Assembly: GCA_964570285.1 (NCBI GenBank)
Contig: CAZMXP010000010.1
Coordinates: 10,512 to 74,511 of the forward strand
DNA: 64,000 nt
Direction: 5' to 3'
Source of the DNA: an uncultured Planctomycetaceae bacterium
GTDB taxonomy: Bacteria > Planctomycetota > PLA2
Both the position numbers and the translations under genes were made by a program. Positions 9,371 to 61,908 of this stretch are shown piece by piece. Each line of letters begins with the position of its first letter. Position 1 is the first letter of the stretch. Under the pieces are notes generated by a model, which made no database searches, had not been told where the DNA came from, and worked only from the letters and a program-made list of their open reading frames with translations.

Positions 9371-9529
9371 CAGATCTCTCCTGATCACCTCGCACCCCCC
9401 GGCAGCGCCGTCCGGCCACGCTGACCCGTCCCGGAACACGCCCCCCCGGGGGCCATAGCATACGGGTTCGCCACGGTCTCCGCAGGCCCCCCCATCTCGG
9501 CGCGAGCCCCCGCTACAATCGCCGACCTC

Positions 9530-11431: not shown

Positions 11432-12970
<1,539 letters not shown>

Positions 12971-29512: not shown

Positions 29513-31390
29513 GTGCACATGAAGGACGCACCTGCTCGACTCGCGATGCTCTGCGCGGTCCTGCTCGCCTGCTGCGGCGGGGCGCCAATTGCGGAGCTGC
29601 CCCTGGGGCAGTCCGGATCGGGCACCTACCGCCTCGCGGGGCGGGTGACGGACAGCGCGGGATGGCCCGTGGAGGGCGCCGAGGTATCCCTCGGCGAGAT
29701 GAGTGGCGACGTCAGGCGGGCGGAGCCGCGGTCGACGCGATGCGCCGACGATGGAACGTTCGAGTTCGTGGGGGTCACGATGGGCAACTGCCAGCTTGCG
29801 GTGCAAGCCGCTGGCTATGCCACGACCTGTCGCTCCGTGCCCTCCGGCGATGCGGACCTCGCGTTGACGCTATGGCGCCCGGCCTCCATATCCGGCGTGG
29901 TCGTGGACGCGGCGGGCCTTCCGACACGCGCCGAGGTGTCGCGCCTCTCGGACCGCGGCATGTGGGGAACACCCTCCGATGCGACCGACGAGTCCGGCGC
30001 ATTCCGGTATGACGGGCGTACGCCGGGGTCCTTCCACATCCGTGCACTCACGAAGAGCGGCGAGGAGGCCGATCTGCTGTTGCAACTCGCCGAGGGGGCC
30101 CAGCATCACGGCCTGCGCCTGCAAGTCGGCCCCCCGCGGCGATCATGGGTGCGGCTCCGGACCGTCGACCACGGAGGCAAGGGCGTGGCTGCGGAGGAGT
30201 TGTCCTTCACCTGGTCCGACGGGCGCCCGCGCATCGAGCCCGTGGGACAGGAGGTGCTGGCCGTCTACGATCTGCCGCCCGGAAGCGAGGTCACGCTGCG
30301 GGTGCAGAGGGGCGACGAGGCCGCGGCCGATCTCCGCGCGAAGACCGCATCGTCACCCGACAGCGCTCCCGCGGAGTTGACTCTCCCCCAGATGGTCCCC
30401 GTCCGTTTCGAGTCCGAGCCGCACGTAGACCGCCTCGGCGTGGGCGTCTGGCGCGGGGACTGGGAGATCGAGTTCGGCAGGACGCCACAGCGGCTGAGTC
30501 CAGCTTGCAGCTACGACGTGCGGTTCGAGGCGCGCGGCTATCTGCCGCACATCGAGTTCGACTGGCGACCGTCGCCGGAGGGCTCGGTGCTCAGGGTCCC
30601 GCTGAAGCCCGCGGCGACCGTGACCGGCACGGTCGTGGACCTCGACGGCAGGCCGCTCCCGAGTGCCACGGTCAAGGTCGGCGGTGTCGAATACTCCACC
30701 CCGGTCAGCGACGACGGGACCTTCAGCCTCGACGCTCTCGAACCCGGGGAGCAGGTGATCTGCGCGGATGTCGCGTGGACGCGCGTGGCCGCCACGCGCG
30801 TGCGCGCGGTTGCAGGAGTGGCCACAGACATCGGCAACCTGGTCGCCCAACGGCCTCGCCGGGTCGCAGGCCGCATTCGCGACGAATCCGGCCGCCCGAT
30901 CGGCGGCGCCCAACTCACCTTCGTGACGCTGCTGCGGGGCGGGTACTTCCTCTCAGACTCCGCCGACCAGTCCGAGACCTACTCGCACCACGACGGCCGG
31001 TTCGCCTTCGAGGTGCCCGGCGTCGCCGGCACCCTGATCGCCCACAAGCAGGGTTTTGGGACGACTCCTGTCGCGTGGCCCGAGGGCGAACCGGTGGGCC
31101 TCGAGGTCGTGTTGCCGCGCCCCGCGCTGCTGCGAGTCTCCGCGCTGCCCGAGCCCGAGTGGAACGACACCGGCTGGACCTGCTCGATCCGCTGGCCGGA
31201 CGGGACCGTGTGGGACATCGACGAGTTCCTCCCCTGCGACGTGGAGGTAGCCCCGGGTGCAATCGAAGTCCTGGGCCACTTCCAGCCCTACCGCATCGCG
31301 CCCTACTTCCGGTCCGACCTCGGCGGCACGAGGACGCGCAGCATCCTCGCTGTCGCCGGCGAGACCTTCCGCGTCGAGTTCGAGCGATAG
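29513..31390 (+). CDS. Lipoprotein with CarbopepD_reg-like repeats
   Basis: Lipobox AVLLACCGG; repeats RVTDSAGWPVEGAEVSL, GVVVDAAGLPTRAEV, GTVVDLDGRPLPSATVKV, GRIRDESGRPIGGAQLTF. Confidence 0.65.
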   Translation: MHMKDAPARLAMLCAVLLACCGGAPIAELPLGQSGSGTYRLAGRVTDSAGWPVEGAEVSLGEMSGDVRRAEPRSTRCADDGTFEFVGVTMGNCQLAVQAAGYATTCRSVPSGDADLALTLWRPASISGVVVDAAGLPTRAEVSRLSDRGMWGTPSDATDESGAFRYDGRTPGSFHIRALTKSGEEADLLLQLAEGAQHHGLRLQVGPPRRSWVRLRTVDHGGKGVAAEELSFTWSDGRPRIEPVGQEVLAVYDLPPGSEVTLRVQRGDEAAADLRAKTASSPDSAPAELTLPQMVPVRFESEPHVDRLGVGVWRGDWEIEFGRTPQRLSPACSYDVRFEARGYLPHIEFDWRPSPEGSVLRVPLKPAATVTGTVVDLDGRPLPSATVKVGGVEYSTPVSDDGTFSLDALEPGEQVICADVAWTRVAATRVRAVAGVATDIGNLVAQRPRRVAGRIRDESGRPIGGAQLTFVTLLRGGYFLSDSADQSETYSHHDGRFAFEVPGVAGTLIAHKQGFGTTPVAWPEGEPVGLEVVLPRPALLRVSALPEPEWNDTGWTCSIRWPDGTVWDIDEFLPCDVEVAPGAIEVLGHFQPYRIAPYFRSDLGGTRTRSILAVAGETFRVEFER

Positions 31391-39266: not shown

Positions 39267-39487
39267 GGGGCGCGGGGGCACGCGGCGCGTCGCGGGCGGG
39301 ACGGTACGGATCGAGGTCGCCCCGTCGGCCGCCGACGGGAAGATCCGCGTGGAACCTCGCCCACGGCGCGCCGTAACGCTTCCACCACACCGAGCGGCGA
39401 CTCACGTAACGCTCCGGGCCCGGATTCCACTGTTTCGGCTCTGGCATCGTGGTTGCGTCCGACGGAGCGGGGTAAGGAGGCTCGGCC

Positions 39488-39703
39488 ATGTGGCGGAACT
39501 TGCTCTGCGGTGTCGCGCTTGGCTGCATCGCGTCGGTGGCGGCGGCCCAGGATCCGGGGGAAGGGCAGCTGGTTGCGCGGGACGGGACGGCCTTCCCGCT
39601 GCGACACACCGACGTGAAGGCGGAGGTCTCGGGCACCGTCGCATCGGTGCGCGTGAGGGAGACCTTCCGCCCGGGCACGGTCACCACTCCACCCCGCACG
39701 TAG
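39488..39703 (+). pseudogene. Truncated N-terminal fragment (71 codons) of a secreted VIT-domain (vault inter-alpha-trypsin) protein
   Basis: Strong RBS AAGGAGG 7 nt upstream; signal peptide; DGTAFPLRHTDVKAEVSGTVASVRVRETF matches the start of VIT domains but the ORF stops after 71 aa. Confidence 0.35.
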
Positions 39704-40114: not shown

Positions 40115-42505
40115 TCAGGGCAGGGGCCGAAGGCGCAGGTAGGGCTCCAGGTCCGCGGGCACCCCTTCAAGCGGGAGCGCGCGGATCTGGGCGACCTGCC
40201 ACGGCGTCCACGCCCTGACGCCGACCTCGGCGGGCTCGTAACCCGGCGCCCTCACGCGCAGACGATAGCTGCCGGGAGCGAGGAAAGGCACGACGAGCCG
40301 CCCCCCCGCCCCCCCCCAATCCGCGAAGGTCCGCAGGAAGTCGTCGAACTCCGCGACGTCGGCGAAGTAGCCGTGGAAGCGGCAGGCCGCCGCGAGGCCG
40401 CGCACATCGAGGCCGCTCTCGCTCAGGACCCGCGCCTCCACGCCGAGGATCGGGTTCCCGGCGGGATCGGTCACGCGCAGCGTCGCCTCGACCGCGCGCT
40501 GCAGCGGCAGTTCGCACTCCTCGATGTCGGCGCGGGTGAGATCGAACGGGAAGAGTGTCGCGGGCAGGCCCGGAGCCGACGCGCACACAAGGAGAGGGGC
40601 CGCGGGGAGACCCACGAGCCGGAAGTAGCCGTCGGGGTCCACGGAGGTCGCGGCGAGGGCGCTCTTCGGGTCTCCGTCGACGAGGCGCACGGTGGCGCGG
40701 TCGAGGGGCGTGTCGGTGAAGACGGGGGGGCCGAGGGGGCCGAGCCGCCCCTCGCGGAGGAAGACCCTGCCGGCGAGGGAGCGGCCGCGGACGACCCGGA
40801 GGATCTGGGGCTCCTGCGGCGTCGCGTGGGCGAGGACCATCGCGCCCAAGGTGCCGAGGAAGCCGGGCGCGCCGACCTCCGCCACGTAGCCGCCGGTGGG
40901 CAGGTCGGTCACTTCGACGAAGTCGCCGCCGCGGGGGATCGACACCTCCCGACGCAGCGCGCTTCCGACCGCCGCGAGCAGCAGCGTGGCGCGAGCGAGC
41001 GGCCGGCCGGCGGTGTCGAGGCGGATGCGCAAGGTGCCCGCCCGCTCGAGGCGCACGACGACCCGGCTCTCCGGCCTTGCGCGGAGTTCCACGAAGGGGA
41101 GGTGCGGGTCGTCGTGCAGCGCCCGGCAGCCCGGGGCCGGGCTCAGCACGAGGGCGAATTCGCCGGCGCCCCGGGCGAGTCCCTCGAGCACAAAGGCGCC
41201 GTCGGCGCCGGAGAGAGCCTCGCAGCCGCCGCAGCGCACCTCGACGCCGGGCAGCGGCCTCCCGTCCGCGTCCGCCACGGTGCCGCGAAGCGAGGTGAGG
41301 GCGGAGGCGGGGGGTGGGGCGATGCTGCACTCGGCGACCGCGCCTGCCGCCGCGGCGACCCGCTCCCCGGTCTCGTCGAGATCGACGAGCGTGAGCAGGT
41401 ACTCGCCGCCGAGCAGGCCGTCGATGTGGAAGCGGCCGCGCCGGTCGGCGCGCACGGTGCGGCGGCCCTCCCGGCCCGTGCAGGCGACGACGGCGCCGGG
41501 CGCGGTCTGCCCCGCGACCGCGGCGCCGCGATGAAGCGTGACCTCGTGGTGGGCGCATGCGCCCGCGGGTGGAGCGGCGAAGGCCGCCACCGACTCCGGC
41601 AGGCAGCCGGGGGCGGAGACGAGGATGCGGTACTCCGCCCCCGGACTGAGCCCGCTGAAACGGAACCGGCGGCCCCCCTCGCGCCGTTCGGCCAGCACGT
41701 TGGCACGGAGCCGGGGTTCTGCGAGCACGCGTTCCAGCCAGTGCGGCATCAGCAGCGCGCTCGCCTGCCCGCCGCCGCCGCGGACCGTGAGCGAGACGCT
41801 TGAGCCGGGCACCAGCGCGATGTCGCAGCGCGTGCGCTCCTCCCCCGGCCGGAAATCGATCCGGCGCAGCGTCTCCGCCCAGCCGATCGCGCGCACCCGA
41901 AGCGAGACGACCCTGCCGCGGAATCCGCCGATGCCGAAGCTCCCGTCCGCACCGGAGTGCGCGAGGCGCCCCGTGGGCCGCCCGTCGGCAAACGCCTCGA
42001 CCGTCGCACCGGGGATGGGCCGACCATCGGGCGCGGCCACGGTCCCGACGACGACGAGGCCCGGATCGAGCTCGAACCCGAGCCGCGAGGGGCCGCGGAC
42101 GCGCACGAGCGTCCCCTCGGAGGGGACGCGGTCGGGATGGATCGCGACGAGTCGGTGGATGCCTTCGGGCAGGCGCAACTCGCCGGGCTCGAACAGGAGC
42201 CCCTCCCAGACAAGCCGCGTTCCGCGCGGCGCGTCGACCGTGACCGGAAAGGCCCGCCTGGCGACAAGGCGCGCGTCGTCGCGCACCCCGCGCGCCACCG
42301 CGCTCATGGTGCCCGGCCCCATCGCGATCAGGTCGTACTCCGCCTCCGCGAGCCCCGCGAGCAGCGCCCTCCCCCCGACGACCTCCGCGCGGGCGCGCTC
42401 CATCCCGTCGCGGTAGGCGATGACGACCTCCGCTCCGCCCTCGACCTCCGCGCGGATCTCCACCGGCGGGAGAGCGGCAAGCACGAGGATCAGCAGCGCG
42501 TTCAC
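40115..42505 (-). CDS. Large secreted CarbopepD_reg-repeat protein (paralog 2)
   Basis: GTG start (revcomp 42503-42505) overlapping htpX stop; signal peptide VNALLILVLAALP; many Ig-like repeats (GTVAAPDGRPIPGATVEA, GTVADADGRPLPGVEVRC, and similar). Confidence 0.65.
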   Translation of the reverse strand: MNALLILVLAALPPVEIRAEVEGGAEVVIAYRDGMERARAEVVGGRALLAGLAEAEYDLIAMGPGTMSAVARGVRDDARLVARRAFPVTVDAPRGTRLVWEGLLFEPGELRLPEGIHRLVAIHPDRVPSEGTLVRVRGPSRLGFELDPGLVVVGTVAAPDGRPIPGATVEAFADGRPTGRLAHSGADGSFGIGGFRGRVVSLRVRAIGWAETLRRIDFRPGEERTRCDIALVPGSSVSLTVRGGGGQASALLMPHWLERVLAEPRLRANVLAERREGGRRFRFSGLSPGAEYRILVSAPGCLPESVAAFAAPPAGACAHHEVTLHRGAAVAGQTAPGAVVACTGREGRRTVRADRRGRFHIDGLLGGEYLLTLVDLDETGERVAAAAGAVAECSIAPPPASALTSLRGTVADADGRPLPGVEVRCGGCEALSGADGAFVLEGLARGAGEFALVLSPAPGCRALHDDPHLPFVELRARPESRVVVRLERAGTLRIRLDTAGRPLARATLLLAAVGSALRREVSIPRGGDFVEVTDLPTGGYVAEVGAPGFLGTLGAMVLAHATPQEPQILRVVRGRSLAGRVFLREGRLGPLGPPVFTDTPLDRATVRLVDGDPKSALAATSVDPDGYFRLVGLPAAPLLVCASAPGLPATLFPFDLTRADIEECELPLQRAVEATLRVTDPAGNPILGVEARVLSESGLDVRGLAAACRFHGYFADVAEFDDFLRTFADWGGAGGRLVVPFLAPGSYRLRVRAPGYEPAEVGVRAWTPWQVAQIRALPLEGVPADLEPYLRLRPLP

Positions 42506-45599: not shown

Positions 45600-46103
45600 C
45601 TACTTGCCGGAGAGGGGGGCGGCGTCGAGGATCGACTCGGCGATGTGGTGGTAGAGCGACGACCGGTAGACGATGCCGATCACGCGGCCGTCGCGCACCA
45701 CCGGAAGGCTCTTGACCCGGCGGCTGACGATCAGGTCCGCCGCCTCGAACAGGTCGGCGTCGGGACGCAGCGTCACCGGGTCGCGGCTCATCACGTCGCG
45801 GACGCGCACCTTCGCCGCCCACGCCGCGAGGCCCTTGAAGTCCGAGGGCTCCATCGAGGGTGCCGCCCGGTGCCCCGGCGCGGCGAGTTCGCGGACGAAG
45901 TAGGGGAAGAGGATCTCCCCGACGACATCGGACTGCGTGAGGATGCCGCTCAGCTTGCCGTCGGCGCCGAGCACGACGACGCACTTGATCCCGATCTCGT
46001 CCTCGACGAGCGGGCACTCCCGCAGCCGCTGCATCGCCGCGAGGAGCGTCGTGCCCTCCTGCACGACCTGGAATTCCGAGGTCATCACGTCGGCTACCGT
46101 CAC
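45600..46103 (-). CDS. CBS-domain pair protein
   Basis: Two CBS motifs (DVMTSEF...PLVEDE...VLGADGKLSGILTQSDV; DVMSRDPVTL...LPVVRDGRVIGIVYRSSL). Confidence 0.75.
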   Translation of the reverse strand: MTVADVMTSEFQVVQEGTTLLAAMQRLRECPLVEDEIGIKCVVVLGADGKLSGILTQSDVVGEILFPYFVRELAAPGHRAAPSMEPSDFKGLAAWAAKVRVRDVMSRDPVTLRPDADLFEAADLIVSRRVKSLPVVRDGRVIGIVYRSSLYHHIAESILDAAPLSGK

Positions 46104-46132: not shown

Positions 46133-47665
46133 TCATCCGCGGGCCGATCCCGCGCCGGATCGCCCCGGCGACGACTCCCGCAATCCGTGGGCCGCAGCGG
46201 CCCGCGGCAGCAGCACGCGGAACGTGCTGCCCTTCCCGACCTCGCTCTCGACCTCGATCCGGCCCCCGTGCTCGCGCACGATGTCCTGCGAGATCGTCAG
46301 CCCGTACCCGGTGCCCGCCTCCCCCTTCGTCGTATAGAGGAAGTCGAAGATGCGGCCGATCGCCTCGGGCGGGATGCCGATGCCCGTGTCCCGGATCTCG
46401 ATCGACACCGTGGAATCCTGCGCGGAGACCTCCGCGAGCAGGCTCCCGCCGTCGGGCATCGCGTCCCTCGCGTTCGTGATCAGGTTGAGCAGCACCTGCG
46501 AGAGGCCCCCGGCGTCGGCGTCGAGCGTGTGGCGCCCCCGCTCCCCCTTCACCTCCATCTTGATCCCGCGCTGGTGGAGGTCGTGCCGCAGCAGCGCATG
46601 CAGCTCCCCGAGCAGCGTGATCGGGTCGACCTTGTCCTCGCGCCGCACGGTCGCCCGCGTCACCCCGCGGAGCTGGGCGATCAGCTCCCCGGTGCGCGCC
46701 AGCGCGTCCCGCATCACCGCGGCCCCGCGCCGCATCTCCTCGGCCGGGATCGTCTCGCCGCGGTCGAGGCGCTTCAGCAGCGCCTCGAGGTATTGCGCGA
46801 CGCCGTGCACCGGATTAGCGACCTCGTGCACGATGCTGCCCGCGAGCCGGCCGATCGCCGCCTGCCGCTCCTGCTCGCGCACGATCGCGTGCATGCGTGC
46901 GCGGTGGCGCATGTCCTGCATGTATCCGGTGAAGCCGACGCGCTCGCCGAGGTGGTCGAGGGTGACGACGCGTTCGTCGAACACCGGGATCAGCGTCCCG
47001 TCCTTCCCGCGCGCGAGCAGCTCGCCGCTGGCCCGGCCCTCCCGCCGGCAGAGCTCGAGCCAGTAGAGGGGGTCGTAGCCCTCGTCGAAGAGTTCCCCGA
47101 TGCCCTTCCGGCCGACGACCTCCGCCTCGCCATACCCGAGGAGCTCGCTGATGTGGCGGTTGAAGGAGGTCACGAGCCCGCGCGCGTCCAGCGTGTAGAT
47201 CCCGACCGGCACCGTCGCGTAGATCTGGCGCAGCTCCCGCGTGCGCCTGCCCACCTCGTCTTCGAGGCCGCGGTTCAACGACTCCAGCCGCTCCTGCAAC
47301 TCGCGGATGCGCAACATGGCCCGGACGCGCGCGAGCAACTCCTGGTGGGCGACGGGCTTGGTCACGTAGTCGTCGCCGCCGGCGGCGAGGCCGCGCACGA
47401 CGCTCTCGGTGTCGCGGTTGTGGGCGGTGACGAGAATGATCGGGATGCTGCGGGTCGTCTCGTCGGCGCGCAGGCGCCGGCAGACCTCGAAGCCGTCCAT
47501 GGCCGGCATCTGCACGTCGAGCAGGATGCAGTGCGGCCGCTCGCGCTGCGCGAGCGCGATCGCCTCCGCCCCGCCGGCCGCCTCGAGGACGTCGTAGCCG
47601 TCGAGGAGCAGCCGGAGCGAGTACCGGTTGTCGGCGTTGTCGTCGACGACGAGGATGCGGCTCAT
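46133..47665 (-). CDS. Hybrid sensor: N-terminal receiver (REC) - PAS - HisKA - HATPase histidine kinase
   Basis: MSRILVVDDNADN...LLDVQMPAMDG REC; PAS (VGIYTLDARGLVTSFNR); H-box HEVANPV; G-boxes DTGIGI, GTGYGL; the upstream 785 codons of the track ORF are artefact. Confidence 0.8.
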   Translation of the reverse strand: MSRILVVDDNADNRYSLRLLLDGYDVLEAAGGAEAIALAQRERPHCILLDVQMPAMDGFEVCRRLRADETTRSIPIILVTAHNRDTESVVRGLAAGGDDYVTKPVAHQELLARVRAMLRIRELQERLESLNRGLEDEVGRRTRELRQIYATVPVGIYTLDARGLVTSFNRHISELLGYGEAEVVGRKGIGELFDEGYDPLYWLELCRREGRASGELLARGKDGTLIPVFDERVVTLDHLGERVGFTGYMQDMRHRARMHAIVREQERQAAIGRLAGSIVHEVANPVHGVAQYLEALLKRLDRGETIPAEEMRRGAAVMRDALARTGELIAQLRGVTRATVRREDKVDPITLLGELHALLRHDLHQRGIKMEVKGERGRHTLDADAGGLSQVLLNLITNARDAMPDGGSLLAEVSAQDSTVSIEIRDTGIGIPPEAIGRIFDFLYTTKGEAGTGYGLTISQDIVREHGGRIEVESEVGKGSTFRVLLPRAAAAHGLRESSPGRSGAGSARG

Positions 47666-49989
47666 CGGTGTGCCCCTGGCCGCGAGGCGGCCGGCGACCG
47701 CGGCCCGCTCCCGCTCGATTCGGGGGGGGGCGGGGGGGGGGTCGCCGAGGGGTCGGGGGGCGCCGCGAACGCTTGATCGAGGTGGGGAAGAAGCCCGCGC
47801 ACCATCTCGTGGATCGGCACCGCCTCCGACCGGGAGAGCCCCTCCACCCAAGCTGTCGCCTCGACGCGATGCCGCTCGGTCACGCGCGCGGGCAGCGCGA
47901 GCGGCGGGAGGGTGCCGCAGAGGAGTCGATGGCCGCCTTCGGGCTCGGGCACAAGGCGCATCGTGCCGAGGAAGGCGCCCCGGTTCTCGGTCGCGTCGAG
48001 CCAGTAGGCGAACCGCATCGTGTCGCCTGCGGCGAGGCGCGGCGCGAGCGCGCCGAACACATCCAGCCCCTCCCCGGCGAAGATTCCCACGTCGCACAGC
48101 AGCGCGGAGAGGTTGCCCCGCTCCAGCGCGGTGCGGACGTCGCGACCGCAGACGGCCCGTCCCGTCTCGAGGCCCGCCGCCCGGAGTTCCGCGCGCAGGG
48201 CGTCCCCCGCGGGCGGCGTCGCCCCGACGACGAGGATCTCGCGCCCGCCCCCCGCGGGCCTCGCGCCACCCGAGACCCGCGCCGGGATGCGCTGAGGCAG
48301 CGACAGCCGGAACGTCGTGCCCCGGCCCACCTCCGAGTCCACGCCGATCCGGCCGCCGAGGAGCTCCGCGAGGCTCCGCGCGATCGTCAGGCCGAGTCCC
48401 GATCCCCCCGCCGCCCGGCTCATCGAGCCGTCCGCCTGGCGGAAGGGCTCGAAGATCCTGTCGATCTGCTCGCGCTCGATGCCCGGGCCGCTGTCCTGCA
48501 CCTCGAACTCGACGCCGCCGCCGGTGCGCGGGCCGCACCGGAGTTCCACGCCTCCCGCCGCCGTGAACTTGACCGCGTTGTGCGCGAGATTGAGCAGGAT
48601 CCGGTGCAGCTTCTCCTCGTCGGTGCGGATGCGCGGCAGCGGCTCCTCGCAGCGCAGGTGGAGCGTGAGCCCCTTCTCCTCGGCGATCGGCGCGACGAGT
48701 TCGCGCACGCCCGCGAGCACCGCCGCGGGAGAGACCTCCGCGGGCAGCACATCCATGTGTCCGGCGCCGATCTTGCTGATGTCGAGGATGTCGCCCAGCA
48801 TCGCGAGCAGGGCCCTTCCGCTCCGCTCGACGATCGCGATCTGCTTGCGCTGCTCCTCGCTGAGCGGCCCGCCCGCGCCCCTCAGCAGCAGGCCGCTCAG
48901 CGTCAGGATCGACTGGAGCGGGGTCCGCACCTCGTGCGACATGTTGGCGACGAACTCGCTCTTGAGCCGGTCGGCCTGCACGATGTCGGTGTTGAGGCGC
49001 TCGAGCTCGCACCGCTGGCAGAAGAGCTCCTGCCGCTGCTTCCGGATCTCGGCATCGCGCTCGCCGAGGCGGCGGTGCATCTCGTTCAGCGCCTCGCGCA
49101 CCCGCCGCAGCGCGGGGATCCCCTCCTCCGCCACCTCCCCCCCGAATTCGCCGCGCGCGGCCCGGTCGAGCGACGCGGCCATGCCCGCGAAGGAGCGTTC
49201 CGACCGCCTCCCGACGACGGCGATCGCGCCGACGACGATCGCGAAGAAGAGCGCACCCAGCGCGACGAGCCAGAGCGCGATGCGGCGAAGCGGCCCCGTC
49301 ACCTCCGCGAGATCCATCTCGGCGACCACGCGCCACGGCCCGGCCGCGGCGCTCGCGCCGAGCACGACGACTCCGCGCTCGTCGGCATAGGTGGTCCCCG
49401 GGCCGCGGGCGAAGGCGTCTTCGCCCCGCGCCTGGTCGACCCGCCTCCCGCCCGCGTCGACGAGGAAGGTCCCTCCCGTCCCCCCGGGCCCCCTCGAAGC
49501 CGCCACGCGGCGGGAGAGCAGGTCCAAAGGAAAGGCGGCGAATGCTGCACCCCCATCCGGGGCCGCGCCTCCGACGATGCAGTCGTCGCCCCGCGCGACC
49601 ACCTCGCCGGCCCGCACGCGGGCAAGGTCCTCGGGGGAGAGGGCTGCTGCCGCGTCGCCGGGGATGACGCTGCCGTCGGAGCCTGCGAAGCCGTACCGGA
49701 TCCCCGCCCCGAGTTGGGCGGGGAACTGGTCGAGACGCGACGCCACCCGGTCGCGGTCGTGGAGGGCGAGCAGGACCGCGTGGTCGCGCAGGCCCTGCAC
49801 GAAGTCTTCCACGGCCGACGCGCGGATCTTCGCCGTGGTCTCGAGGTGGTCGCGGAAATAGTCGCGGTTGGCGTCCTGCAGCACCGCGTAGGCGACCGCT
49901 GCGAGGATCGCGCTCGGGAGCACCGCCACCGCCGCGAACCAGGCGATCAGCCGCAGCGTCAGACCCCCGGGGCGTGCCATCGGCCCCAT
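47662..49989 (-). CDS. Sensor histidine kinase with periplasmic sensor domain, HAMP, HisKA, HATPase and a degenerate C-terminal receiver-like domain; Pro-rich tail
   Basis: TM-flanked ~270-aa extracytoplasmic region; HAMP; H-box MSHEVRTPLQ; DSGPGI, GGSGLGL; ATG at 49989 (or 49980); 4-nt overlap with the downstream hybrid kinase. Confidence 0.75.
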   Translation of the reverse strand: MGPMARPGGLTLRLIAWFAAVAVLPSAILAAVAYAVLQDANRDYFRDHLETTAKIRASAVEDFVQGLRDHAVLLALHDRDRVASRLDQFPAQLGAGIRYGFAGSDGSVIPGDAAAALSPEDLARVRAGEVVARGDDCIVGGAAPDGGAAFAAFPLDLLSRRVAASRGPGGTGGTFLVDAGGRRVDQARGEDAFARGPGTTYADERGVVVLGASAAAGPWRVVAEMDLAEVTGPLRRIALWLVALGALFFAIVVGAIAVVGRRSERSFAGMAASLDRAARGEFGGEVAEEGIPALRRVREALNEMHRRLGERDAEIRKQRQELFCQRCELERLNTDIVQADRLKSEFVANMSHEVRTPLQSILTLSGLLLRGAGGPLSEEQRKQIAIVERSGRALLAMLGDILDISKIGAGHMDVLPAEVSPAAVLAGVRELVAPIAEEKGLTLHLRCEEPLPRIRTDEEKLHRILLNLAHNAVKFTAAGGVELRCGPRTGGGVEFEVQDSGPGIEREQIDRIFEPFRQADGSMSRAAGGSGLGLTIARSLAELLGGRIGVDSEVGRGTTFRLSLPQRIPARVSGGARPAGGGREILVVGATPPAGDALRAELRAAGLETGRAVCGRDVRTALERGNLSALLCDVGIFAGEGLDVFGALAPRLAAGDTMRFAYWLDATENRGAFLGTMRLVPEPEGGHRLLCGTLPPLALPARVTERHRVEATAWVEGLSRSEAVPIHEMVRGLLPHLDQAFAAPPDPSATPPPPPPESSGSGPRSPAASRPGAHR

Positions 49990-50163
49990 TCTCGCAGAGG
50001 GTCGCCGCGGCTTCACGCAACGACGCACCGGAGTCCGACGGAGGGGCGGGCGGCCGAGGGCGCGGCCCGCGGGCGGGTCATCGCACCCGCAGGCCGGTAG
50101 AATACCGCGCAAAAGTCCACGAGCGGGGGCGCGATCGACTTTCGGCCCCGCGGAACAGGATTT

Positions 50164-51572
<1,409 letters not shown>

Positions 51573-51576
<4 letters not shown>

Positions 51577-52394
51577 CGCCCGCCGGAAGGCGCCTCGAGA
51601 TCCTCGTCGACGGCGTGCACAAGGCGTTCGGGACCAATCGCGTCCTCCGAGGCGTCGACCTGGAGATCGAGCGGGGCACGATGGTCGCGCTGATCGGCGG
51701 CTCCGGCTGCGGCAAGACCGTGCTGTTGCAGCACATGATCGGCCACCTGACGCCCGACCGCGGGAGAGTGCTCGTCGCCGATCACGAGAGCGAGGGCGCC
51801 CCCCTGATGGACCTCGCCACGCTCGACGAGCAGGGGCTCGACCGCATCCGGATCCACAGCGCCGTCGTCTTCCAGCGCAATGCGCTCTTTTCCGGCACCG
51901 TCCAGGACAACGTCGCCCTGTGGCTGCGCGAGATCCGGCGCCTGCCGGAACCCGAGATCGCGCGACGCGTGCAGGAGGCGGTCGCCTCGGTCGGTCTGGG
52001 CGGCGAGCCGGGCATCCTCGCGCGCCACCGCGACGAACTCTCCGGCGGCATGGCGAAGCGGGTCGCCGTCGCGCGCGCCCTGGCGATGCGGCCGACCGTG
52101 ATGTACTACGACGAGCCGACGACCGGCCTCGACCCGGCGAACGCCTCGCAGATCCACGAACTCATCGCCGCCACCCACCGGCGCCTCGGGGGCGCGTCGC
52201 GCGGTGCGACCACCGTCGTCGTGACGCACGACAAGGACCTGCTCCGCCGCCTCGAGCCGCGCATCGTGATGCTCGACGCCGGCCGCGTCTACTTCGACGG
52301 CAGCTACGACGAGTTCGAGCAGTCGGAGGCGCCGATCATCCGGCCCTACTTCGACCTGATGCCGGTCCTGCACAGCCGAAGCCTCGGCGTGTAG
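51573..52394 (+). CDS. ABC transporter ATP-binding protein (MlaF/MkL-like), no cognate permease adjacent
   Basis: Walker A GGSGCGKT, signature LSGGMAKRVAVARAL, Walker B VMYYDEPTTGLD; GTG start overlaps the NtrC stop. Confidence 0.8.
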
Positions 52395-52513
52395 GGGGTT
52401 GTCCGGGGCATCGCCCGCGGCCACACTTCGAGGCCCACCGGACCGGGAGAGACTCCCGGCCCCGGCGGGTTGCCAGCGCGGCCTCGATCCCGCAACATGG
52501 AGCATCCCCTCGC

Positions 52514-53755
52514 ATGAGTGCCCAAGAGGCCCCCCGTGGCGATGCTGCGACGGAACGCGCGGGCCGAGCGCCCCCGCCCCCCCCTCACGATTCGCGCGTC
52601 CGCGCGCTCGAGGCACTGCCGGGCACCGTCGGCCCCGTCCTCGCCCTCGCGGGCGGGGGCCTCGCGGTGGCCGTCGACCCTCGGATCGGCAGCCATCGCG
52701 CCGCGGTCGCCTGCGATCTCGATCCGGGCTTCGGCATCCGCTTCTACCGCACGGGCCTCACGGAGGAGGCGCTCTCGCGGAACGCCGGGTTTCTCGCCGA
52801 CGACCTCGCGAGGACCATCCCGGCGGGAGAGCAGAGCCAGGGGCTCGTGCGCATCGACGTCCCGCGACTCCACCGGGTGCTGCGCCACGGCGCCCGATGG
52901 GTCGTGCACCAGGGCATCGGCACGCGCGCCGATCTCGACGTGACGGTCCATGGGGGCGCCATGCCCGAGGCGGATCCCGAGGCGATCCCGCTCGACCTGC
53001 GCCGGGCGCATCTGGACGAAGTGGGCACCCTGGGCAGCGGCGAGGCTGGCATCGACCTTCTCGTGGCCGAATCGCTCGATCCCGCCTCGGGCGCGCGGTG
53101 GCAGATCCGGGAGGGCGAGATCCTGCTCCGCGTCCGTTGCGGCGCGCGCTCGCTCGGGCGGATGTTCCTCCGCCGCTGCGGCGCCGCGGGGGAGTCGCCC
53201 CTCGCGTCGCGCGAAGGGGTCCGCTTCCTCGGGGGCCTCGCCGCCGCGACGAACCTCGCGCTGGCCAACCGGCAGATCGTCGGCACGCTGGCGCAGCGCA
53301 GCCTCGCGCGCTGCATTCGCGGAGCCCATCTGGTGCCGCTCTGCGATCTTGTCGCCGATCAGGTCGAAGAGGGGGGGGAGCGGGGGGGGACGCGCCTGCT
53401 GATCCACAGGCGCGCCGCCTACCGTCTGCTCGACTCCCCGACGACGCTCTCCGCCGGCGTCGGCGCGACCGCGGCCCTGCTCGCCTCCCCCCGCACCCCC
53501 CTCGAACTGCCGATCCCCGCAGCGGTGGACCGCCGCGTGCCCGCGCCGGAGACCGGAAGCCTCTGGAGCGCCCGCGAGGTGGAGCGGGAGATGGCCTCCC
53601 GGGGGGTGATGCTCCGCTACGCCTCCCCCGCGACCCTCGAGAGCGAGGCGCCCTGGGCCTTCTCCGACCCGGAGCCGACGGAGCGCTCGCTCGAAGAGGC
53701 CGGACTCGTCACCCGGGTGGGTCGCCTGCGCCCGCTGCTCGCGATCCGCGGCTAG
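52514..53755 (+). CDS. Hypothetical soluble protein (413 aa), co-transcribed with the ABC ATPase
   Basis: ATG 52514; uninterrupted frame with GC3 bias; no recognisable motif. Confidence 0.45.
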   Translation: MSAQEAPRGDAATERAGRAPPPPPHDSRVRALEALPGTVGPVLALAGGGLAVAVDPRIGSHRAAVACDLDPGFGIRFYRTGLTEEALSRNAGFLADDLARTIPAGEQSQGLVRIDVPRLHRVLRHGARWVVHQGIGTRADLDVTVHGGAMPEADPEAIPLDLRRAHLDEVGTLGSGEAGIDLLVAESLDPASGARWQIREGEILLRVRCGARSLGRMFLRRCGAAGESPLASREGVRFLGGLAAATNLALANRQIVGTLAQRSLARCIRGAHLVPLCDLVADQVEEGGERGGTRLLIHRRAAYRLLDSPTTLSAGVGATAALLASPRTPLELPIPAAVDRRVPAPETGSLWSAREVEREMASRGVMLRYASPATLESEAPWAFSDPEPTERSLEEAGLVTRVGRLRPLLAIRG

Positions 53756-53824
53756 CCGCGCGCAATCCGCCCCGGAAACCGGAGACGGAACCCGGAATCC
53801 AAGACGAGAGGCCGATCGTGTCGT

Positions 53825-53840
53825 TGGCAGGGCTTATGCA
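53825..53840 (+). promoter_or_regulatory. Sigma54-type -24/-12 promoter-like element TGGCAGGGCTTATGCA upstream of the nucleotidyltransferase gene
   Basis: Matches TGGCAC-N5-TTGCA at GG(-24) and GC(-12) with correct spacing and 2 mismatches; an NtrC-family activator is encoded 2.2 kb upstream. Confidence 0.3.
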
Positions 53841-55688: not shown

Positions 55689-55738
55689 GGTGTCCTCCCA
55701 CGCACCCCTTACAATCCGCGTGCCGACGAGGCTTCTGC

Positions 55739-57259: not shown

Positions 57260-57348
57260 GCGCGGCGAAGTCCGCGCACAATGCCCCGCTCCGGTGCGCC
57301 GCGGCCGCGGGCCGCCGTTTGCAGAGCGATCGGGCGAAGGAGGTTGCC

Positions 57349-57973: not shown

Positions 57974-60421
57974 CTATCTCGCGGCCTCCGGCTCCACAGG
58001 AATCCGGACCGTCGCCTCGGCGATGGTCTCGCGGGAGACATCGACCGTCGCGGTCAGTTCGCGCCCTTCGTGCTTGAGGACGAGGATCAGGGGGCCCGGG
58101 GGCAGGTCGGGGATCAAGTACTCGAAGTGGCCGGGGGCCACCGCGGTGGGCCACTCCAGATCCGGCCAGAGAGTGACGCCGGTGGCCGGGTCGCGAAGCG
58201 ACAATCGGAACTCGTCGCCCACGAACGCCGGATCACATCGCACGGTCAGTTTCGCCTGTGCCGCCGCCTCGAGCACGATCCGGAGTTCGTCCGCAGTTTC
58301 CAGCGGGTAGATCTTCGTCCCATATCCCTTTCGCACGGCGACAAGGTGGACCGCCCCCCTCGCCGGCACACGCACGCGGAAGGTGCCGTCCTTCCTCGTG
58401 TAGCTCTCGGCCTCGGATTCGTAGACCTCGACGAGAACGCCCCCGAGTCCCCTGCCATTCGCATCGACGACGCGCCCTCTGACGAAGCGCGGTGCCGTTA
58501 GGGTATGCGTGCCGATGTCGAGGGTCTCGCCAGCCCGTGCCACGCATGTGCCGAGGCGCTCCCTGTTCCTGAACTCCTCCTCCGCATCGACGGCCACGGT
58601 TCCAGGCGCGACTCCGGAGATCGTGAATTCGCCTGACTTGTTGACTTCCGCACGACACTGGCCGATGACGGCGAACGCACCGTCGGCTGGCGACCCATCG
58701 AAGCGCAGGATCCGCCCCCGAACGCGCGCCGCCGGCCTCATCCGGACCTCGAGAACGGCGCCCTGGGCGGGGATCGACCGGTCGGCCCTCTCGAAGGTGA
58801 CGTAGCCCTCGGCCGTGACTTTGAAGCAACAGAAGCGGGTGCCCAGAGTATTGACAGCCAGCCGCGCACCCTCACTTCCCGTCTCGATGACCTCCATTCC
58901 CCAGACGGTGCCTCGGACGCATGGTGTCACGGACGAGGGCAACGGCTCACCCTCCGGACCGCGGATCCGCACGTCGAAGGTCAGCGCGTCAAGCAGTTGG
59001 AGATCGGTCGGTTCTGCGCCCGATGCAGCCACGGTCGGCAGCGTGACGATCGGTCCCATCCGTCCGTGAGGCAGATCCGATCTCACGATCGCTCTGACCG
59101 GTGTTCCGGCGGGCTCGGGAAGGCGCAGTTCGACGATTCCGTCGGGCCCGGTGAGGAGCTCACGGGGCGTGGCCTCCGTGTAGCAGCCCCAGTTCGCAAC
59201 TGGCTTCCGGTCACGGTCGAGGATGCGAAGCCGGAGGAAGGAGAGGGCGGGAGTCTTGAGTTGCAGTGTCACTCGAGTCTCGATGCCGCCCGCGATCTCG
59301 ATCTGGCTCTCGGCGGCGCAAGCACCATGAACGGCCTTGAGGTCGACCCATCCGGGAGGCCAAGCGGCGATCCTGAAGTGCCCGGACGCGTCGCAGGACG
59401 CCAATAGCGTGTTATCGAGGAAGACCTCGGCTCCCGCTGCGGGCGCGCCCCCAGGAAGGAGGACCTCACCGGCGAGCGAAGCGAATCTGTCGAGGACGAT
59501 CCTCGCGTCAGACTCGCCGGAGATTGCTGCGATCTTGCACGGAGGGTAGCCCTCGGCCGACACGGATAGCTCGAGCCTGCCCGGCCAGAACCCCTCCAGC
59601 CGAAAGCGCCCCTCTGCGTCCGTCCGCACGCTGTGCGGCCACCGCCGATCGAAGTCGATCTCCACCCCGGACACCGGTTGGCCGGCGTCATCCACGACGG
59701 TACCCTCGACGAGGCCACCTTCGCCGAGCGCGATCGGGGAAAGGGGCTCCGCCCCAGAACAGGCGATTAGCCGGTCGGCGTATCCGGTGCATTGAACGAG
59801 CAGGGCCCAATGGGTCTCCGCCTCGATTTCGGCCCAACCATCCGGTCCGGTCCGGTAGCTGGCCAGCGGCTCGTCCGGCCCATCGATCACGCGATTCTCG
59901 ACGAACAAGAGATGGAGGAATGCCCCCTCGATCGGCGCCCCATCTTCGTTCACGACGCGCACATCGAAGCGCACCATCGGCCGCAGCACGAACCTCTCGG
60001 ATTCTCCGCCGGCGAACTCATGATACCCGTCCACCGCGGTCGCGTGACCTGCGAGTGTCACCTCGACGAAGAGGTCGCCCCCCTTCGGCAGCGAGAGCTG
60101 GAAGGCGCCCTCGCTGCCGCTGACGCTCTCGGCGAGCGGAGCGGGCCGCGCGCCGTTGGGAAGGTAGCGGCCCGGGAAGGCGACGATCCGCGCGCCGGGC
60201 AGGGGAGTCTCCTCCTCGTCCACAACAATGCCCGAGAGCCGGCACAGTTGCGGCGCGGCGCGTGCGCTCGCTGGGTCCTGCCCGGAGATGTGCGCCTCTG
60301 CCCCCGCGCCCCCTGATCTTCCGCCGCGAGTGTGTCGCGGGTTGTCCTCTCCACCCCACTTCCACCATGCGAGCGCGAGAAGCAGCAGAAGCAGAAAGAG
60401 ACCGGCGAGCCGCGCAGCCAT
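57974..60421 (-). CDS. Large secreted CarbopepD_reg-repeat protein (paralog 3), N-terminal signal anchor
   Basis: ATG at revcomp 60419-60421 gives MAARLAGLFLLLLLLALAWW; repeats GIVVDEEETPLPGARIVAF, GTVVDDAGQPVSGVEIDF, GRVVDANGRGLGGVLVEV and similar. Confidence 0.65.
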   Translation of the reverse strand: MAARLAGLFLLLLLLALAWWKWGGEDNPRHTRGGRSGGAGAEAHISGQDPASARAAPQLCRLSGIVVDEEETPLPGARIVAFPGRYLPNGARPAPLAESVSGSEGAFQLSLPKGGDLFVEVTLAGHATAVDGYHEFAGGESERFVLRPMVRFDVRVVNEDGAPIEGAFLHLLFVENRVIDGPDEPLASYRTGPDGWAEIEAETHWALLVQCTGYADRLIACSGAEPLSPIALGEGGLVEGTVVDDAGQPVSGVEIDFDRRWPHSVRTDAEGRFRLEGFWPGRLELSVSAEGYPPCKIAAISGESDARIVLDRFASLAGEVLLPGGAPAAGAEVFLDNTLLASCDASGHFRIAAWPPGWVDLKAVHGACAAESQIEIAGGIETRVTLQLKTPALSFLRLRILDRDRKPVANWGCYTEATPRELLTGPDGIVELRLPEPAGTPVRAIVRSDLPHGRMGPIVTLPTVAASGAEPTDLQLLDALTFDVRIRGPEGEPLPSSVTPCVRGTVWGMEVIETGSEGARLAVNTLGTRFCCFKVTAEGYVTFERADRSIPAQGAVLEVRMRPAARVRGRILRFDGSPADGAFAVIGQCRAEVNKSGEFTISGVAPGTVAVDAEEEFRNRERLGTCVARAGETLDIGTHTLTAPRFVRGRVVDANGRGLGGVLVEVYESEAESYTRKDGTFRVRVPARGAVHLVAVRKGYGTKIYPLETADELRIVLEAAAQAKLTVRCDPAFVGDEFRLSLRDPATGVTLWPDLEWPTAVAPGHFEYLIPDLPPGPLILVLKHEGRELTATVDVSRETIAEATVRIPVEPEAAR

Positions 60422-60522
60422 CGGCCTTGATGTTAACTGCGCGATTCTGCGCGCGGAATCCCCCGAAGGGCGCCCCGCCGGCAGGTCTGCGGCGGGGCCC
60501 GCGATTTGCGAACCGGGCCGGG

Positions 60523-61908
60523 ATGGCAACCCTTCCGTGCGTCCTGTTCGGGCTCTTGGTGTTTGGGCAGGTGGCCACGGCCGGCGAGCAAGCCACCCTC
60601 GAAGAGGTGCAGCGCCGGAACGCGCAACTGGAGGAGCGGGTGAGGAGGCTCGAGTCGGCGCAACTCGAAACGGCGATCGAGGAGTATCTCGCGACCAATG
60701 CCGCGTCCGGGGCCGACTCGATCCTGCCGGGGGGGACCTCGATCCGCTTCTCCGGCGAGGTGAGGGTGCGCGGCGAGATCCAGCACCACCTCTACTCGCC
60801 TGAAGATCCGGCCGGCGAGCGGAGCTTCGATCTCGTGCGGCTGCGGACGCGGCTCCGGGTGGACGTCGATGTGACCGAGGATGTCGGAGTGATCGTCGAG
60901 CTGCAGGATGTGCGCCTCTTCGGCGAGGAGGGGAGCACGATCGGAGACCTCGAAGGGCTCGACCTGAAGCGCGGGACGATTCTCGTGAAGAAGATCGGCG
61001 GGGAGCCGCTGTCGGCCGAACTCGGGCGGTTCGTCATGCACTACGGCGACCAGCGCATCATCGGCCACCTCGAGTGGGTCGATCAGGGGCGCACCTACGA
61101 CGGCCTCCGCCTGCACTATCAGCCGGAGCAGTGGTGGTTCGACTTCTTCGCCGTGCGCGTCCGCGAGACGACGCCGCCAGTGACGGACGACGACCAGTGG
61201 TTCGCCGGCCTCTACGGCGGGCGGGGCTGCGTCGAGGCCTATGCGCTGCTCTTCTCCGACGACAAGCCCGCGATGGGCGAGCTCGGGATGGACGACTCGC
61301 GCTTCGTCACCGCCGGGGTGCGGGTGAACCGTACGACCGGGCCGTGGGACTACACCGGCGAGGTGACGGTGCAGACGGGCGACGTGCGGGGCGACGACCT
61401 CGACGCCCTCGGCGTCGCGCTGAAGGGCGGGTACACGTTCGCCGAAGCCGAGTGGCGCCCGCGGGTGGGGCTCGAGGTCGATCTCGCGACCGGGGACGAC
61501 GATCCGGCCGACGGCAGGCAGAAGGGGTTGCAGACGCTCTTCCCGACCAACCACGCGCACTACGGCTTCGCGGACCTCGTCGGGTGGAACAACCTGCTCG
61601 ACCTGCGCGTGACCGCATCCGCGCGCCCGCGCGACAGCCTGACGATCACGCTCGACTTCCACCACTTCCGCCGTCTCGAAGAGCGCGGCCCGTGGGTGAA
61701 CGCGGCCGGCGCGCTGATCCGCCCCGGGCTTGCCGGCAGCGACCGGCACCTCGGCGACGAGATCGACCTGACCTTCACGTGGAAACCGCGCAAGGGACTG
61801 TCGCTGCTGTTCGGGTATTCTCTCTTCCTGCCGGGCGGGTTTGTCACGGCGGGCGGCAGCGACCCGGTGGCGCACTTTGTCTACCTGCAGACGAGCGTGA
61901 ACTTCTGA
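60523..61908 (+). CDS. Outer-membrane beta-barrel protein (alginate-export / porin-like) with N-terminal coiled-coil
   Basis: Signal peptide MATLPCVLFGLLVFGQVATAG; coiled-coil LEEVQRRNAQLEERVRRLE; alternating amphipathic beta-strands; C-terminal aromatic F. Confidence 0.6.
   Translation: MATLPCVLFGLLVFGQVATAGEQATLEEVQRRNAQLEERVRRLESAQLETAIEEYLATNAASGADSILPGGTSIRFSGEVRVRGEIQHHLYSPEDPAGERSFDLVRLRTRLRVDVDVTEDVGVIVELQDVRLFGEEGSTIGDLEGLDLKRGTILVKKIGGEPLSAELGRFVMHYGDQRIIGHLEWVDQGRTYDGLRLHYQPEQWWFDFFAVRVRETTPPVTDDDQWFAGLYGGRGCVEAYALLFSDDKPAMGELGMDDSRFVTAGVRVNRTTGPWDYTGEVTVQTGDVRGDDLDALGVALKGGYTFAEAEWRPRVGLEVDLATGDDDPADGRQKGLQTLFPTNHAHYGFADLVGWNNLLDLRVTASARPRDSLTITLDFHHFRRLEERGPWVNAAGALIRPGLAGSDRHLGDEIDLTFTWKPRKGLSLLFGYSLFLPGGFVTAGGSDPVAHFVYLQTSVNF

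Follow-up and report, generated by a model that had tools for sequence, protein, structure and literature searches.

An apparently inactive RtcB homologue in a predicted sigma-54-dependent stress island of uncultured Planctomycetota

What does a two-component system regulate when its activator gene is followed by a gene for an ATP-binding cassette (ABC) ATPase that has no permease, and then by one for a 413-amino-acid (aa) protein of no assigned family? The question is raised by a stretch of 64,000 nucleotides (nt) from an uncultured Planctomycetaceae bacterium (GenBank assembly GCA_964570285.1, contig CAZMXP010000010.1, positions 10,512 to 74,511 of the forward strand), here called the window. 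In it, the overlapping genes of two histidine kinases (HK-B and HK-A) are divergent from the gene of a sigma-54-dependent activator, which overlaps the ABC ATPase gene and is followed by the gene for the 413-aa protein (Table 1). The original prediction, made from the sequence alone, suggested that the ATPase could be a regulatory, non-transport ATPase and that the 413-aa protein may be the real output. Here, we report that the 413-aa protein is a homologue of the RNA ligase RtcB that appears to be catalytically dead, and that neighbouring stress genes are the likely targets of the activator. With moderate confidence, we read the region as belonging to a sigma-54-dependent stress ("dormancy-like") island that a group of uncultured Planctomycetota have in common; in it, neighbouring stress genes would be the outputs and the RtcB-like protein a non-catalytic pseudo-enzyme.

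RtcB ligases have been studied as enzymes that splice tRNA, take part in the unfolded-protein response, and repair RNA in bacteria. The 413-aa protein matched the Pfam family RtcB (PF01139, E = 9.5e-33), and its residues 34 to 413 aligned with TTHA1785 of Thermus and with RtcB of P. horikoshii (phmmer against PDB, E about 4e-30, about 31% identity). An AlphaFold2 (AF2) model built from an alignment of 52 sequences was confident (pLDDT, 88; pTM, 0.88), and its only significant Foldseek matches in PDB were RtcB structures (TM-score, 0.83 to 0.85; E about 3e-33; 0.85 to P. horikoshii RtcB). A protein first listed as hypothetical and "motif-less" thus has a full-length RtcB fold by Pfam, phmmer, AF2, and Foldseek, and shares that fold with canonical RtcBs (P. 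horikoshii, TTHA1785, human RTCB, and the M. xanthus paralogues).

The two manganese sites of RtcB are formed by Cys98, His234, and His329 and by Asp95, Cys98, and His203, and His404 accepts GMP (PMC10630183); placement of the 5'-OH strand depends on Asn202 and Arg238 (PMC8051266). The RtcB-like protein keeps Asp95 (as D70), His329 (H298), and Arg238 (R212), together with the GSG, ANRQ, and EAP-A motifs. Cys98 is replaced by F73, Asn202 by E177, His203 by A178, and His234 by R208, which removes three of the five metal ligands; Arg190, Gln194, His242, and GMP-binding residues are changed as well. The GMP acceptor His404 (His337 in E. coli, within the CHGAG segment) aligns with D339 or with a gap, and residues 326 to 345 contain no histidine. 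Two deletions take 8 aa from the PDAHWGYGF loop and 14 aa after HRKGA. Of 131 columns conserved at 95% or more among 49 canonical RtcBs, the protein keeps only 51 (61% changed), and NCBIfam scores stay below the cutoffs (PRK09588, 37 bits against 407; RtcB_rel_intein, 109 bits against 1150). The active-site losses are common to all three members of the clade described below. Because His404 and most metal ligands are lost, ligation by the canonical RtcB mechanism should be excluded, and the protein is best regarded as a presumptive dead RtcB homologue, unable to ligate RNA in that way. We found no description of such a clade in the searchable literature.

The clade is narrow. Among 5.8e9 protein clusters there were only two other members (71% and 64% identity), the next matches being typical RtcBs (31% identity, about 476 aa), and a profile search of 1.84e9 cluster representatives returned one cluster of the clade (770 bits) ahead of canonical RtcB (165 bits). 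Comparison of the alignment with the contigs of 185,579 species genomes yielded no relative, and a metagenome scan added one locus, which matched the lineage of the 64% homologue (L003, L004, and L011; the 71% relative is L001). The RtcB-like protein of the window itself had no exact match on record. The open reading frame (ORF) is intact in the three lineages at a synonymous divergence (dS) of 0.6 to 0.8, with all indels in frame. Its pairwise ratios of nonsynonymous to synonymous divergence (dN/dS) are 0.34 to 0.44 (bootstrap 95% upper bounds, ≤0.56), those of flanking genes are 0.17 to 0.26, and 229 of the 413 positions are the same in the three proteins (a count of invariant columns). Judged from these sequences, the protein is under purifying selection that is somewhat relaxed.

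The gene also seems to have regulatory DNA of its own. In the 119 nt that separate it from the ABC ATPase gene lies TTGCCA-N17-CAACAT (52470-52498), both blocks of which are conserved around a variable spacer in the window, L001, and L003; L003 has retained it despite the loss of the genes upstream. It is probably a promoter or operator of the RtcB-like gene. No sigma-54-type site was found upstream of this gene. A conserved TGG-N11-GCATG before its ATG was considered as one and rejected, since its spacing exceeds that of a sigma-54 site by 1 nt and its -12 element lies directly against the conserved start codon. The kept fold, the promoter-like element, and the purifying selection argue for a pseudo-enzyme rather than an output of the two-component system.

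How the locus came about can be followed in relatives. The window and L076 to L078 share the order M48 peptidase-LemA-CvpA, DUF983, CBS-HK-A (with HK-B in L078), and activator. In L076 and L078, the NTP-transferase gene comes directly after the activator, and across L076 to L078 the next gene is that of the NTP-transferase or of a universal stress protein (Usp), without the ABC gene. Further downstream in relatives, the island continues with CBS, a response regulator, a PAS kinase, a CBS-archease-RtcB operon (RtcB of 476 aa), HSP20, and the ribosome hibernation factor HPF. L079 has the ABC ATPase gene 12 kb downstream of its activator, and genes for a Pat-like acetyltransferase, for Usp, and for an AAA_33 protein come next; on another contig, the ABC gene is convergent with the activator.

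A deletion in one lineage bears on which parts belong together. L001 has the last 33 ABC codons just upstream of the RtcB-like gene, where its contig ends. In the L003 lineage, CvpA is followed by an in-frame fusion ORF of 104 aa (L003 9624-9938, L004 826-1140, L011 ~9582-9896) and then by intact RtcB-like and NTP-transferase genes. The fusion joins residues 344 to 402 of the activator, in its AAA lid (56% identity), to residues 243 to 273 of the ABC ATPase (55%), and the flanking CarboxypepD_reg, M48, LemA, and CvpA genes of L003 are syntenic with the window. Because this remnant sits between syntenic flanks, the lineage must have deleted DUF983, CBS, HK-A, HK-B, most of the activator gene, and most of the ABC gene, and the order activator-ABC-RtcB-like is ancestral to the clade. 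Since the RtcB-like gene came through this deletion intact, it requires neither the local two-component system nor the ABC ATPase in cis.

As to its source, a profile of the three RtcB-like proteins gave its best scores to the RtcBs of the L076 island (188 bits) and the L077 island (185 bits); the best other canonical RtcB tested reached 178 bits. A JGI contig of 4 kb reads activator-ABC (4-nt overlap)-HSP20-archease-RtcB, and its RtcB occupies the slot of the RtcB-like gene here. Archease, canonical RtcB, HSP20, and HPF are absent from the window, L001, and L003 by tblastn. The shared slot and the ranking of profile scores suggest that an island RtcB degenerated in situ, an origin that is consistent with the data and not proven.

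If so, the ORF might simply be a decaying island RtcB, functionless and not yet disrupted. Such decay would fit the loss of every catalytic histidine but one, the change of 61% of the highly conserved RtcB columns, the absence of the archease partner from the window, a dN/dS about twice that of the neighbours, and the extremely narrow distribution. It is hard to square with an ORF that has stayed intact through in-frame indels in three lineages at this divergence, with the upper bounds on dN/dS, with the invariant positions, with a compact RtcB fold confidently modelled by AF2, and with a conserved promoter-like element kept after the L003 deletion. We think a functionless relic unlikely.

If the RtcB-like protein is not the output, what is? 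Sigma-54-type sites were counted when they lay on the sense strand, 8 to 60 nt upstream of a gene start, in the window and in L076 to L079 (117 starts). Such sites preceded 24 starts, against 1.8 expected from background density (Poisson 4e-19); a count on the opposite strand of these zones gave 6. Nearly all of the genes concerned are stress genes, among them those for Usp, CBS, NTP-transferase, HSP20, and HPF and the CBS-archease-RtcB operon; HK-B of L078 and a few more complete the set. In the window, the NTP-transferase, Usp, and CBS genes share one layout of promoter, ribosome-binding site, and ATG. The -24 and -12 blocks of TGGCAGGGCTTATGCA (TGGCAGG-N-TTATGCA) are identical in the three RtcB-like lineages with a variable spacer between them, and a conserved GGGGAGG ribosome-binding site and ATG 53865 follow; L076 and L078 have equivalent sites. 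In L076 and L078, Usp genes are preceded by CGGCACGCG... sites that are similar to CGGCACGCGGATTGTA. The search for sigma-54 promoters that the original prediction called for thus found them before the NTP-transferase, Usp, and CBS genes and none before the RtcB-like gene. Because the sites precede the neighbouring stress genes and not the RtcB-like gene, these neighbours are the likely outputs of the activator; that the promoters answer to this particular activator is what we infer. The idea that the 413-aa protein is the output is not supported, on the same ground and in view of its restriction to three lineages and its persistence in L003 without kinases, activator, or ABC ATPase.

Two repeats lie near these promoters. 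A conserved block, GGAAACCG...CCGGAATCC (53785-53815), forms an imperfect inverted repeat 10 to 40 nt upstream of TGGCAGGGCTTATGCA in each of the three RtcB-like lineages. Possible roles are those of a site for the activator, a site of IHF type, or a weak hairpin, and no T-run comes after it. In L076 (10402-10470), the spacer between the activator and NTP-transferase genes contains the direct repeat CGCGCGCGAAGGAC twice; it is not alignable to the window and is a candidate activator binding site.

The regulators conform to the map first drawn. The window has 72% G+C, and its ORFs were judged by a frame plot of GC at codon positions (GC3), which backed all five ORFs of the original prediction with their coordinates and strands. 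The domain architectures of two overlapping kinases divergent from an NtrC-family, sigma-54-dependent regulator were likewise confirmed, as were both 4-nt overlaps. HK-A has the Pfam order REC-PAS-HisKA (weak)-HATPase_c, and its best NCBIfam match is AtoS. HK-B has transmembrane segments at residues 9 to 39 and 233 to 263, an extracytoplasmic domain of about 190 aa, and the H-box HEVRTP; its stop and the HK-A start share ATGA (47662-47665). The possible degenerate receiver at the HK-B C-terminus gave no Pfam match at E ≤ 1. It aligned in register with response regulators in PDB at weak significance (phmmer, E = 0.27 to 1), with the DD pair changed to GA and the acceptor Asp kept; the HK-B orthologue of L078 has a faint Response_reg match, and a single-sequence AF2 model of the C-terminal 212 aa was unusable (pLDDT, 50). 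The neighbourhood is maintained in relatives, with HK-A orthologues adjoining the activator in each of L076 to L078 and an HK-B orthologue, with the same 4-nt overlap, only in L078. A multistep phosphotransfer would be plausible. The divergent region between HK-B and the activator contained no good match to a sigma-54 or sigma-70 consensus.

The activator combines a receiver (Response_reg, 1.6e-26; LLVDDEP and LLD motifs visible in the sequence) with Sigma54_activat (2e-64), AAA_lid_14, and HTH_8 (8.9e-14). Its sigma-54-contacting loop reads GAFTDA in place of GAFTGA, with Phe and Thr retained; G(A/S)FTDA occurs in 116 of 120 close homologues, and GAFTDA itself in 113. Many orthologues of 463 to 466 aa (71 to 74% identity) exist in metagenome-assembled genomes of Planctomycetota, and for this reason the long start (GTG 50164 or 50179) is taken as right. 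The public annotation (430 aa) begins 40 codons late and truncates the REC domain. The best NCBIfam model is AtoC (420 bits; cutoff, 714); NtrC scores 385 (cutoff, 559). RtcR models match residues ~90 to 468 only (NCBIfam, 322 bits against a cutoff of 650; PADLOC RtcR_PspF2, 1e-103), within the generic AAA+/HTH core, and the N-terminus is REC, not CARF. No equivalog cutoff is reached by the kinases or the activator, each of which is an unremarkable member of its family.

The pathway that we propose would start with HK-B and HK-A, co-translated from one operon and presumed to phosphorylate the receiver domain of the activator. The activator would then turn on the sigma-54 promoters, recognised by sequence and conservation, that lie 12 to 30 nt upstream of island start codons. 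Its predicted outputs are the NTP-transferase, tandem Usp, and CBS genes in the window and, in relatives, also HSP20, HPF, and the CBS-archease-RtcB RNA-repair operon. In this sublineage, the ABC ATPase would be carried on the activator mRNA, and the RtcB-like protein would derive from the island RtcB ligase after loss of its archease partner, GMP-accepting His, and most metal ligands.

That leaves the ABC ATPase. Its GTG start shares GTGA (51573-51576) with the activator stop, it has no transmembrane segment, and its motifs are intact (Walker A GGSGCGKT, LSGG, Walker B VMYYDE, H-loop VVVTHD; ABC_tran, 8.2e-28). It had been called MlaF-like. Homologues do carry the JGI KO label of a phospholipid/cholesterol/gamma-HCH transport ATP-binding protein, the sole MlaF label; the NCBIfam MlaF score is 115 bits (cutoff, 441), and ECF, FtsE, and ArtP ATPase models match equally well or better. 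PDB alignments to MlaF and MceG reach furthest (residue 261) at 105 to 108 bits, the ArtP level, with chain 8fed_G among the matches. The lack of a permease was borne out: Pfam searches of ~55 ORFs, essentially the whole window, found no ABC permease, MlaE, MlaD, or binding protein. Homologues at 50 to 70% identity are abundant in Planctomycetota, with some in Alphaproteobacteria, and 15 of their loci were examined through precomputed Pfam tables, with Pfam scans of immediate neighbours in L012 to L016 and crude ORF calls only in L017 and L018. None of the 15 had a permease neighbour, and none of the 16 loci including the window had an adjoining MlaE or MlaD gene, which makes orphan status a property of the ABC family and not of this locus. 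Most family loci (60 to 70% identical) are in unrelated contexts (purD, an aminotransferase, asd, an Na/Ala symporter, AcrB, and tRNA genes, among others). In two Planctomycetota relatives (L005 ~150-212, L007 ~7940-8000), the ABC ATPase gene lies directly 3' of an apparent tRNA gene 3' end (GGTTCGACTCCCACCTCCCCGACCA).

A regulatory, non-transport ATPase acting with the activator, with the 413-aa protein as effector, would gain from the pattern of association: a 4-nt overlap of the ABC and activator genes occurs in the window and in a second lineage, the two genes are adjacent and convergent in a third, they share the island at 12 kb in a fourth (L079), and the ABC gene belonged to the same arrangement in the ancestor of L003. 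The family-wide lack of permease neighbours would suit it too, as would weak CGGCAC-type elements 13 to 16 nt upstream of the ABC start in L079 and L080. We nonetheless judge this model improbable. Most family members, in Planctomycetota and Alphaproteobacteria, have neither activator nor RtcB-like gene nearby; the activator orthologues of L076 to L078 have no ABC gene directly after them; and the RtcB-like gene is limited to three lineages, has no sigma-54 promoter, and survives in L003 without ABC ATPase or activator. The association of ABC ATPase and activator is confined to a sublineage. A separately encoded MlaF-type ATPase also has a conventional precedent in the mycobacterial MceG/Mkl ATPase, which is encoded apart from the Mce permeases that it powers. 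By analogy with MceG, a conservative reading would have the transporter partner encoded elsewhere; most probably, the ABC ATPase powers such a transporter or acts as an accessory.

Two further functions can be imagined for the RtcB-like protein. It could be a new, non-ligase enzyme with a rebuilt metal site, for which Cys67, Asp70, Cys209, and His298, invariant in the three proteins, are candidate ligands: a new invariant Cys stands 3 residues before the retained Asp, and the canonical Cys 3 residues after it is gone; Asp95, His329, and a Cys beside the former His234 are retained; and the ANRQ and EAP motifs are kept too, as is Arg238, a contact of the 5'-OH strand. Given the changes at Asn202, Arg190, Gln194, His242, and the GMP-binding residues, and a basis of three sequences, we hold such an enzyme to be quite unlikely. 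It is a long shot that the dead RtcB retains recognition, but not sealing, of broken RNA ends (those with a 3'-phosphate or a 2',3'-cyclic phosphate). It would then serve as a sensor or adaptor and, perhaps together with the ABC ATPase, tune the activator or ribosome and RNA quality control, a trans-acting functional analogue of the CARF domain of RtcR; if true, no RtcB pseudo-enzyme before it would have had a part in signalling.

Several observations weigh against our preferred reading, the stress island with a non-catalytic RtcB-like protein. L003 keeps the NTP-transferase promoter perfectly without the activator, so either another activator serves it or this one is not its regulator. Matches to TGGCAC-N5-TTGCW are as frequent in the window as in shuffles (153 against 156), which leaves position, orientation, and conservation as the basis of the sigma-54 argument. 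The window does not contain rpoN, and no shared upstream activator-binding site was found, the spacers of distant relatives being too divergent to align. The activator has GAFTDA in place of GAFTGA, which may affect its contact with sigma-54. For the RtcB-like protein, evolution faster than that of the neighbours makes partial decay possible, and descent from the island RtcB is drawn from a margin of ~10 bits and from position, not from phylogeny. Finally, synteny among the three RtcB-like genomes extends over tens of kilobases, so that conserved adjacency among them says little about function.

TABLE 1 Positions in the 64-kb window of the features discussed
Feature	Coordinates	Strand	Basis
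CBS-pair protein, last gene of the kinase operon	45600..46103	-	Pfam CBS x2; same slot 3' of HK-A filled in L076, L077, L078
HK-A, soluble REC-PAS-HisKA-HATPase_c hybrid kinase, 510 aa	46133..47665	-	Pfam; no transmembrane segment
HK-B, membrane sensor kinase, 775 aa	47662..49989	-	HisKA, HATPase_c, 2 transmembrane segments, possible degenerate receiver
HK-B/activator divergent intergenic region, 174 nt	49990..50163	.	Sequence
Activator, REC-AAA+(sigma-54)-HTH_8 enhancer-binding protein	50164..51576	+	Pfam, NCBIfam, motifs
Stand-alone ABC ATPase, 273 aa	51573..52394	+	GTG start overlaps activator stop
Conserved element GGTTGCCA-N-CGATCCCGCAAcATGG upstream of RtcB-like gene	52468..52501	+	Conservation in window, L001, L003
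Putative RtcB-like pseudo-ligase, 413 aa	52514..53755	+	RtcB fold; nucleophile and most metal ligands gone
Predicted sigma-54-type promoter TGGCAGGGCTTATGCA, 25 nt before NTP-transferase ATG	53825..53840	+	Conserved -24/-12 blocks
NTP-transferase, ManC-like N-terminal domain only, 307 aa	53865..54788	+	Pfam, NCBIfam; start ATG 53865 set by alignment
Tandem Usp, 297 aa	54795..55688	-	Pfam Usp x2; orthologues in L001, L076-L078
Predicted sigma-54-type promoter CGGCACGCGGATTGTA, 22 nt before Usp ATG	55710..55725	-	Similar sites in relatives
APH + AAA_33 two-domain kinase-like protein, 506 aa	55739..57259	+	Pfam; 84% identical in L001
Predicted sigma-54-type promoter CGGGCCGCCGTTTGCA, 26 nt before CBS ATG	57308..57323	+	Promoter, ribosome-binding site, and ATG laid out as at NTP-transferase
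CBS-pair protein, 141 aa	57349..57774	+	Pfam; 66% identical to L076 CBS gene; start from tblastn

Elsewhere in the window, four large CarboxypepD_reg-repeat proteins are encoded at 6737-10621 (-), 30080-31390 (+), 40115-42505 (-), and 57974-60529 (-); one such protein flanks the island on each side, as also in L001, L003, L077, and L078. Three further sigma-54-type matches stand before genes. Two are at a distance typical of such sites: GGGCCCGCGATTTGCG (60495-60510, +), which is unchanged in L001, is 13 nt from the start of an alginate-export-type porin gene (60523-61908), and CGGCTCGTCACTGGCT (17395-17380, -) is 23 nt from that of a di-haem cytochrome c peroxidase gene (15717-17357). The third, TGGCATCGTGGTTGCG (39442-39457, +), precedes a small ORF of high GC3 (39476-39703, +; ≤75 aa) that has no Pfam match and is located between purF and a ferredoxin gene. 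The best single consensus match in the window (12705-12720, 1 mismatch) was set aside as chance, as no plus-strand gene is downstream and guaA is on the minus strand. Rfam and tRNA scans of the window returned no matches, PHROGs and PADLOC scans gave generic ABC and AAA+ matches only and indicated no phage or defence module, and a generic scan for sigma-70 promoters and terminators in DNA of 72% GC gave nothing useful.

The closest analogue of the locus is RtcR-RtcBA of E. coli and Salmonella, in which a sigma-54 activator (RtcR) accompanies an RtcB ligase. Both have the gene of a sigma-54 enhancer-binding protein beside an RtcB-family gene; the AAA+/HTH part of the activator matches RtcR models, and sister lineages carry in the island a canonical archease-RtcB operon with a sigma-54-type site before it. 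The two differ in that the sensor here is a REC domain fed by histidine kinases and that of RtcR is CARF; there is no RtcA here; the RtcB-like gene is co-directional with the activator, not divergent; and the RtcB homologue has neither nucleophile, nor most metal ligands, nor a sigma-54 promoter. It also departs from canonical RtcBs at His404, Cys98, His203, His234, and Asn202 and in having no archease partner. Like NtrB/NtrC and AtoS/AtoC, the system joins a REC, AAA+, and HTH_8 activator to adjacent histidine kinases; unlike them, it has two kinases, one of them REC-PAS-HK, a GAFTDA loop, scores under the equivalog cutoffs, and a predicted regulon of stress genes instead of nitrogen or acetoacetate genes. 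The ABC ATPase resembles MlaF and MceG/Mkl as a single nucleotide-binding domain of ~270 aa encoded without a permease; unlike them, it shows generic similarity and no MlaE or MlaD neighbour at 16 loci.

By its domains (a tandem Usp of ~297 aa, CBS pairs, HSP20, HPF-like protein, APH plus AAA, ferredoxin, and Pat-like acetyltransferase), we take the content of the island to resemble the DosR dormancy regulon of mycobacteria. DosR is a NarL/LuxR-type response regulator of another phylum, and the island regulator is a sigma-54 enhancer-binding protein.

The anatomy of the locus was thus right from the beginning. The 413-aa protein is not motif-less but an RtcB homologue, and, without a sigma-54-type promoter, it is not the likely output. 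The components are all of known kinds, and current understanding is not overturned. Two elements are new: an RtcB pseudo-ligase that is lineage-specific and under selection, and, for Planctomycetota, a predicted regulon of stress and RNA-repair genes under a REC-type sigma-54 activator. The work also defines a widespread family of ABC ATPases, none of them beside a permease at the loci examined. For the poorly studied Planctomycetota, it offers a testable regulon in which a REC-type activator and its kinases would govern Usp, CBS, HSP20, HPF, NTP-transferase, and archease-RtcB. If this holds, RNA repair would be under sigma-54 control as in enterobacteria, with two-component input in place of the CARF sensor. 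A dead RtcB under selection would be a natural separation-of-function variant for the roles of RtcB beyond ligation, such as end binding and partner recruitment.

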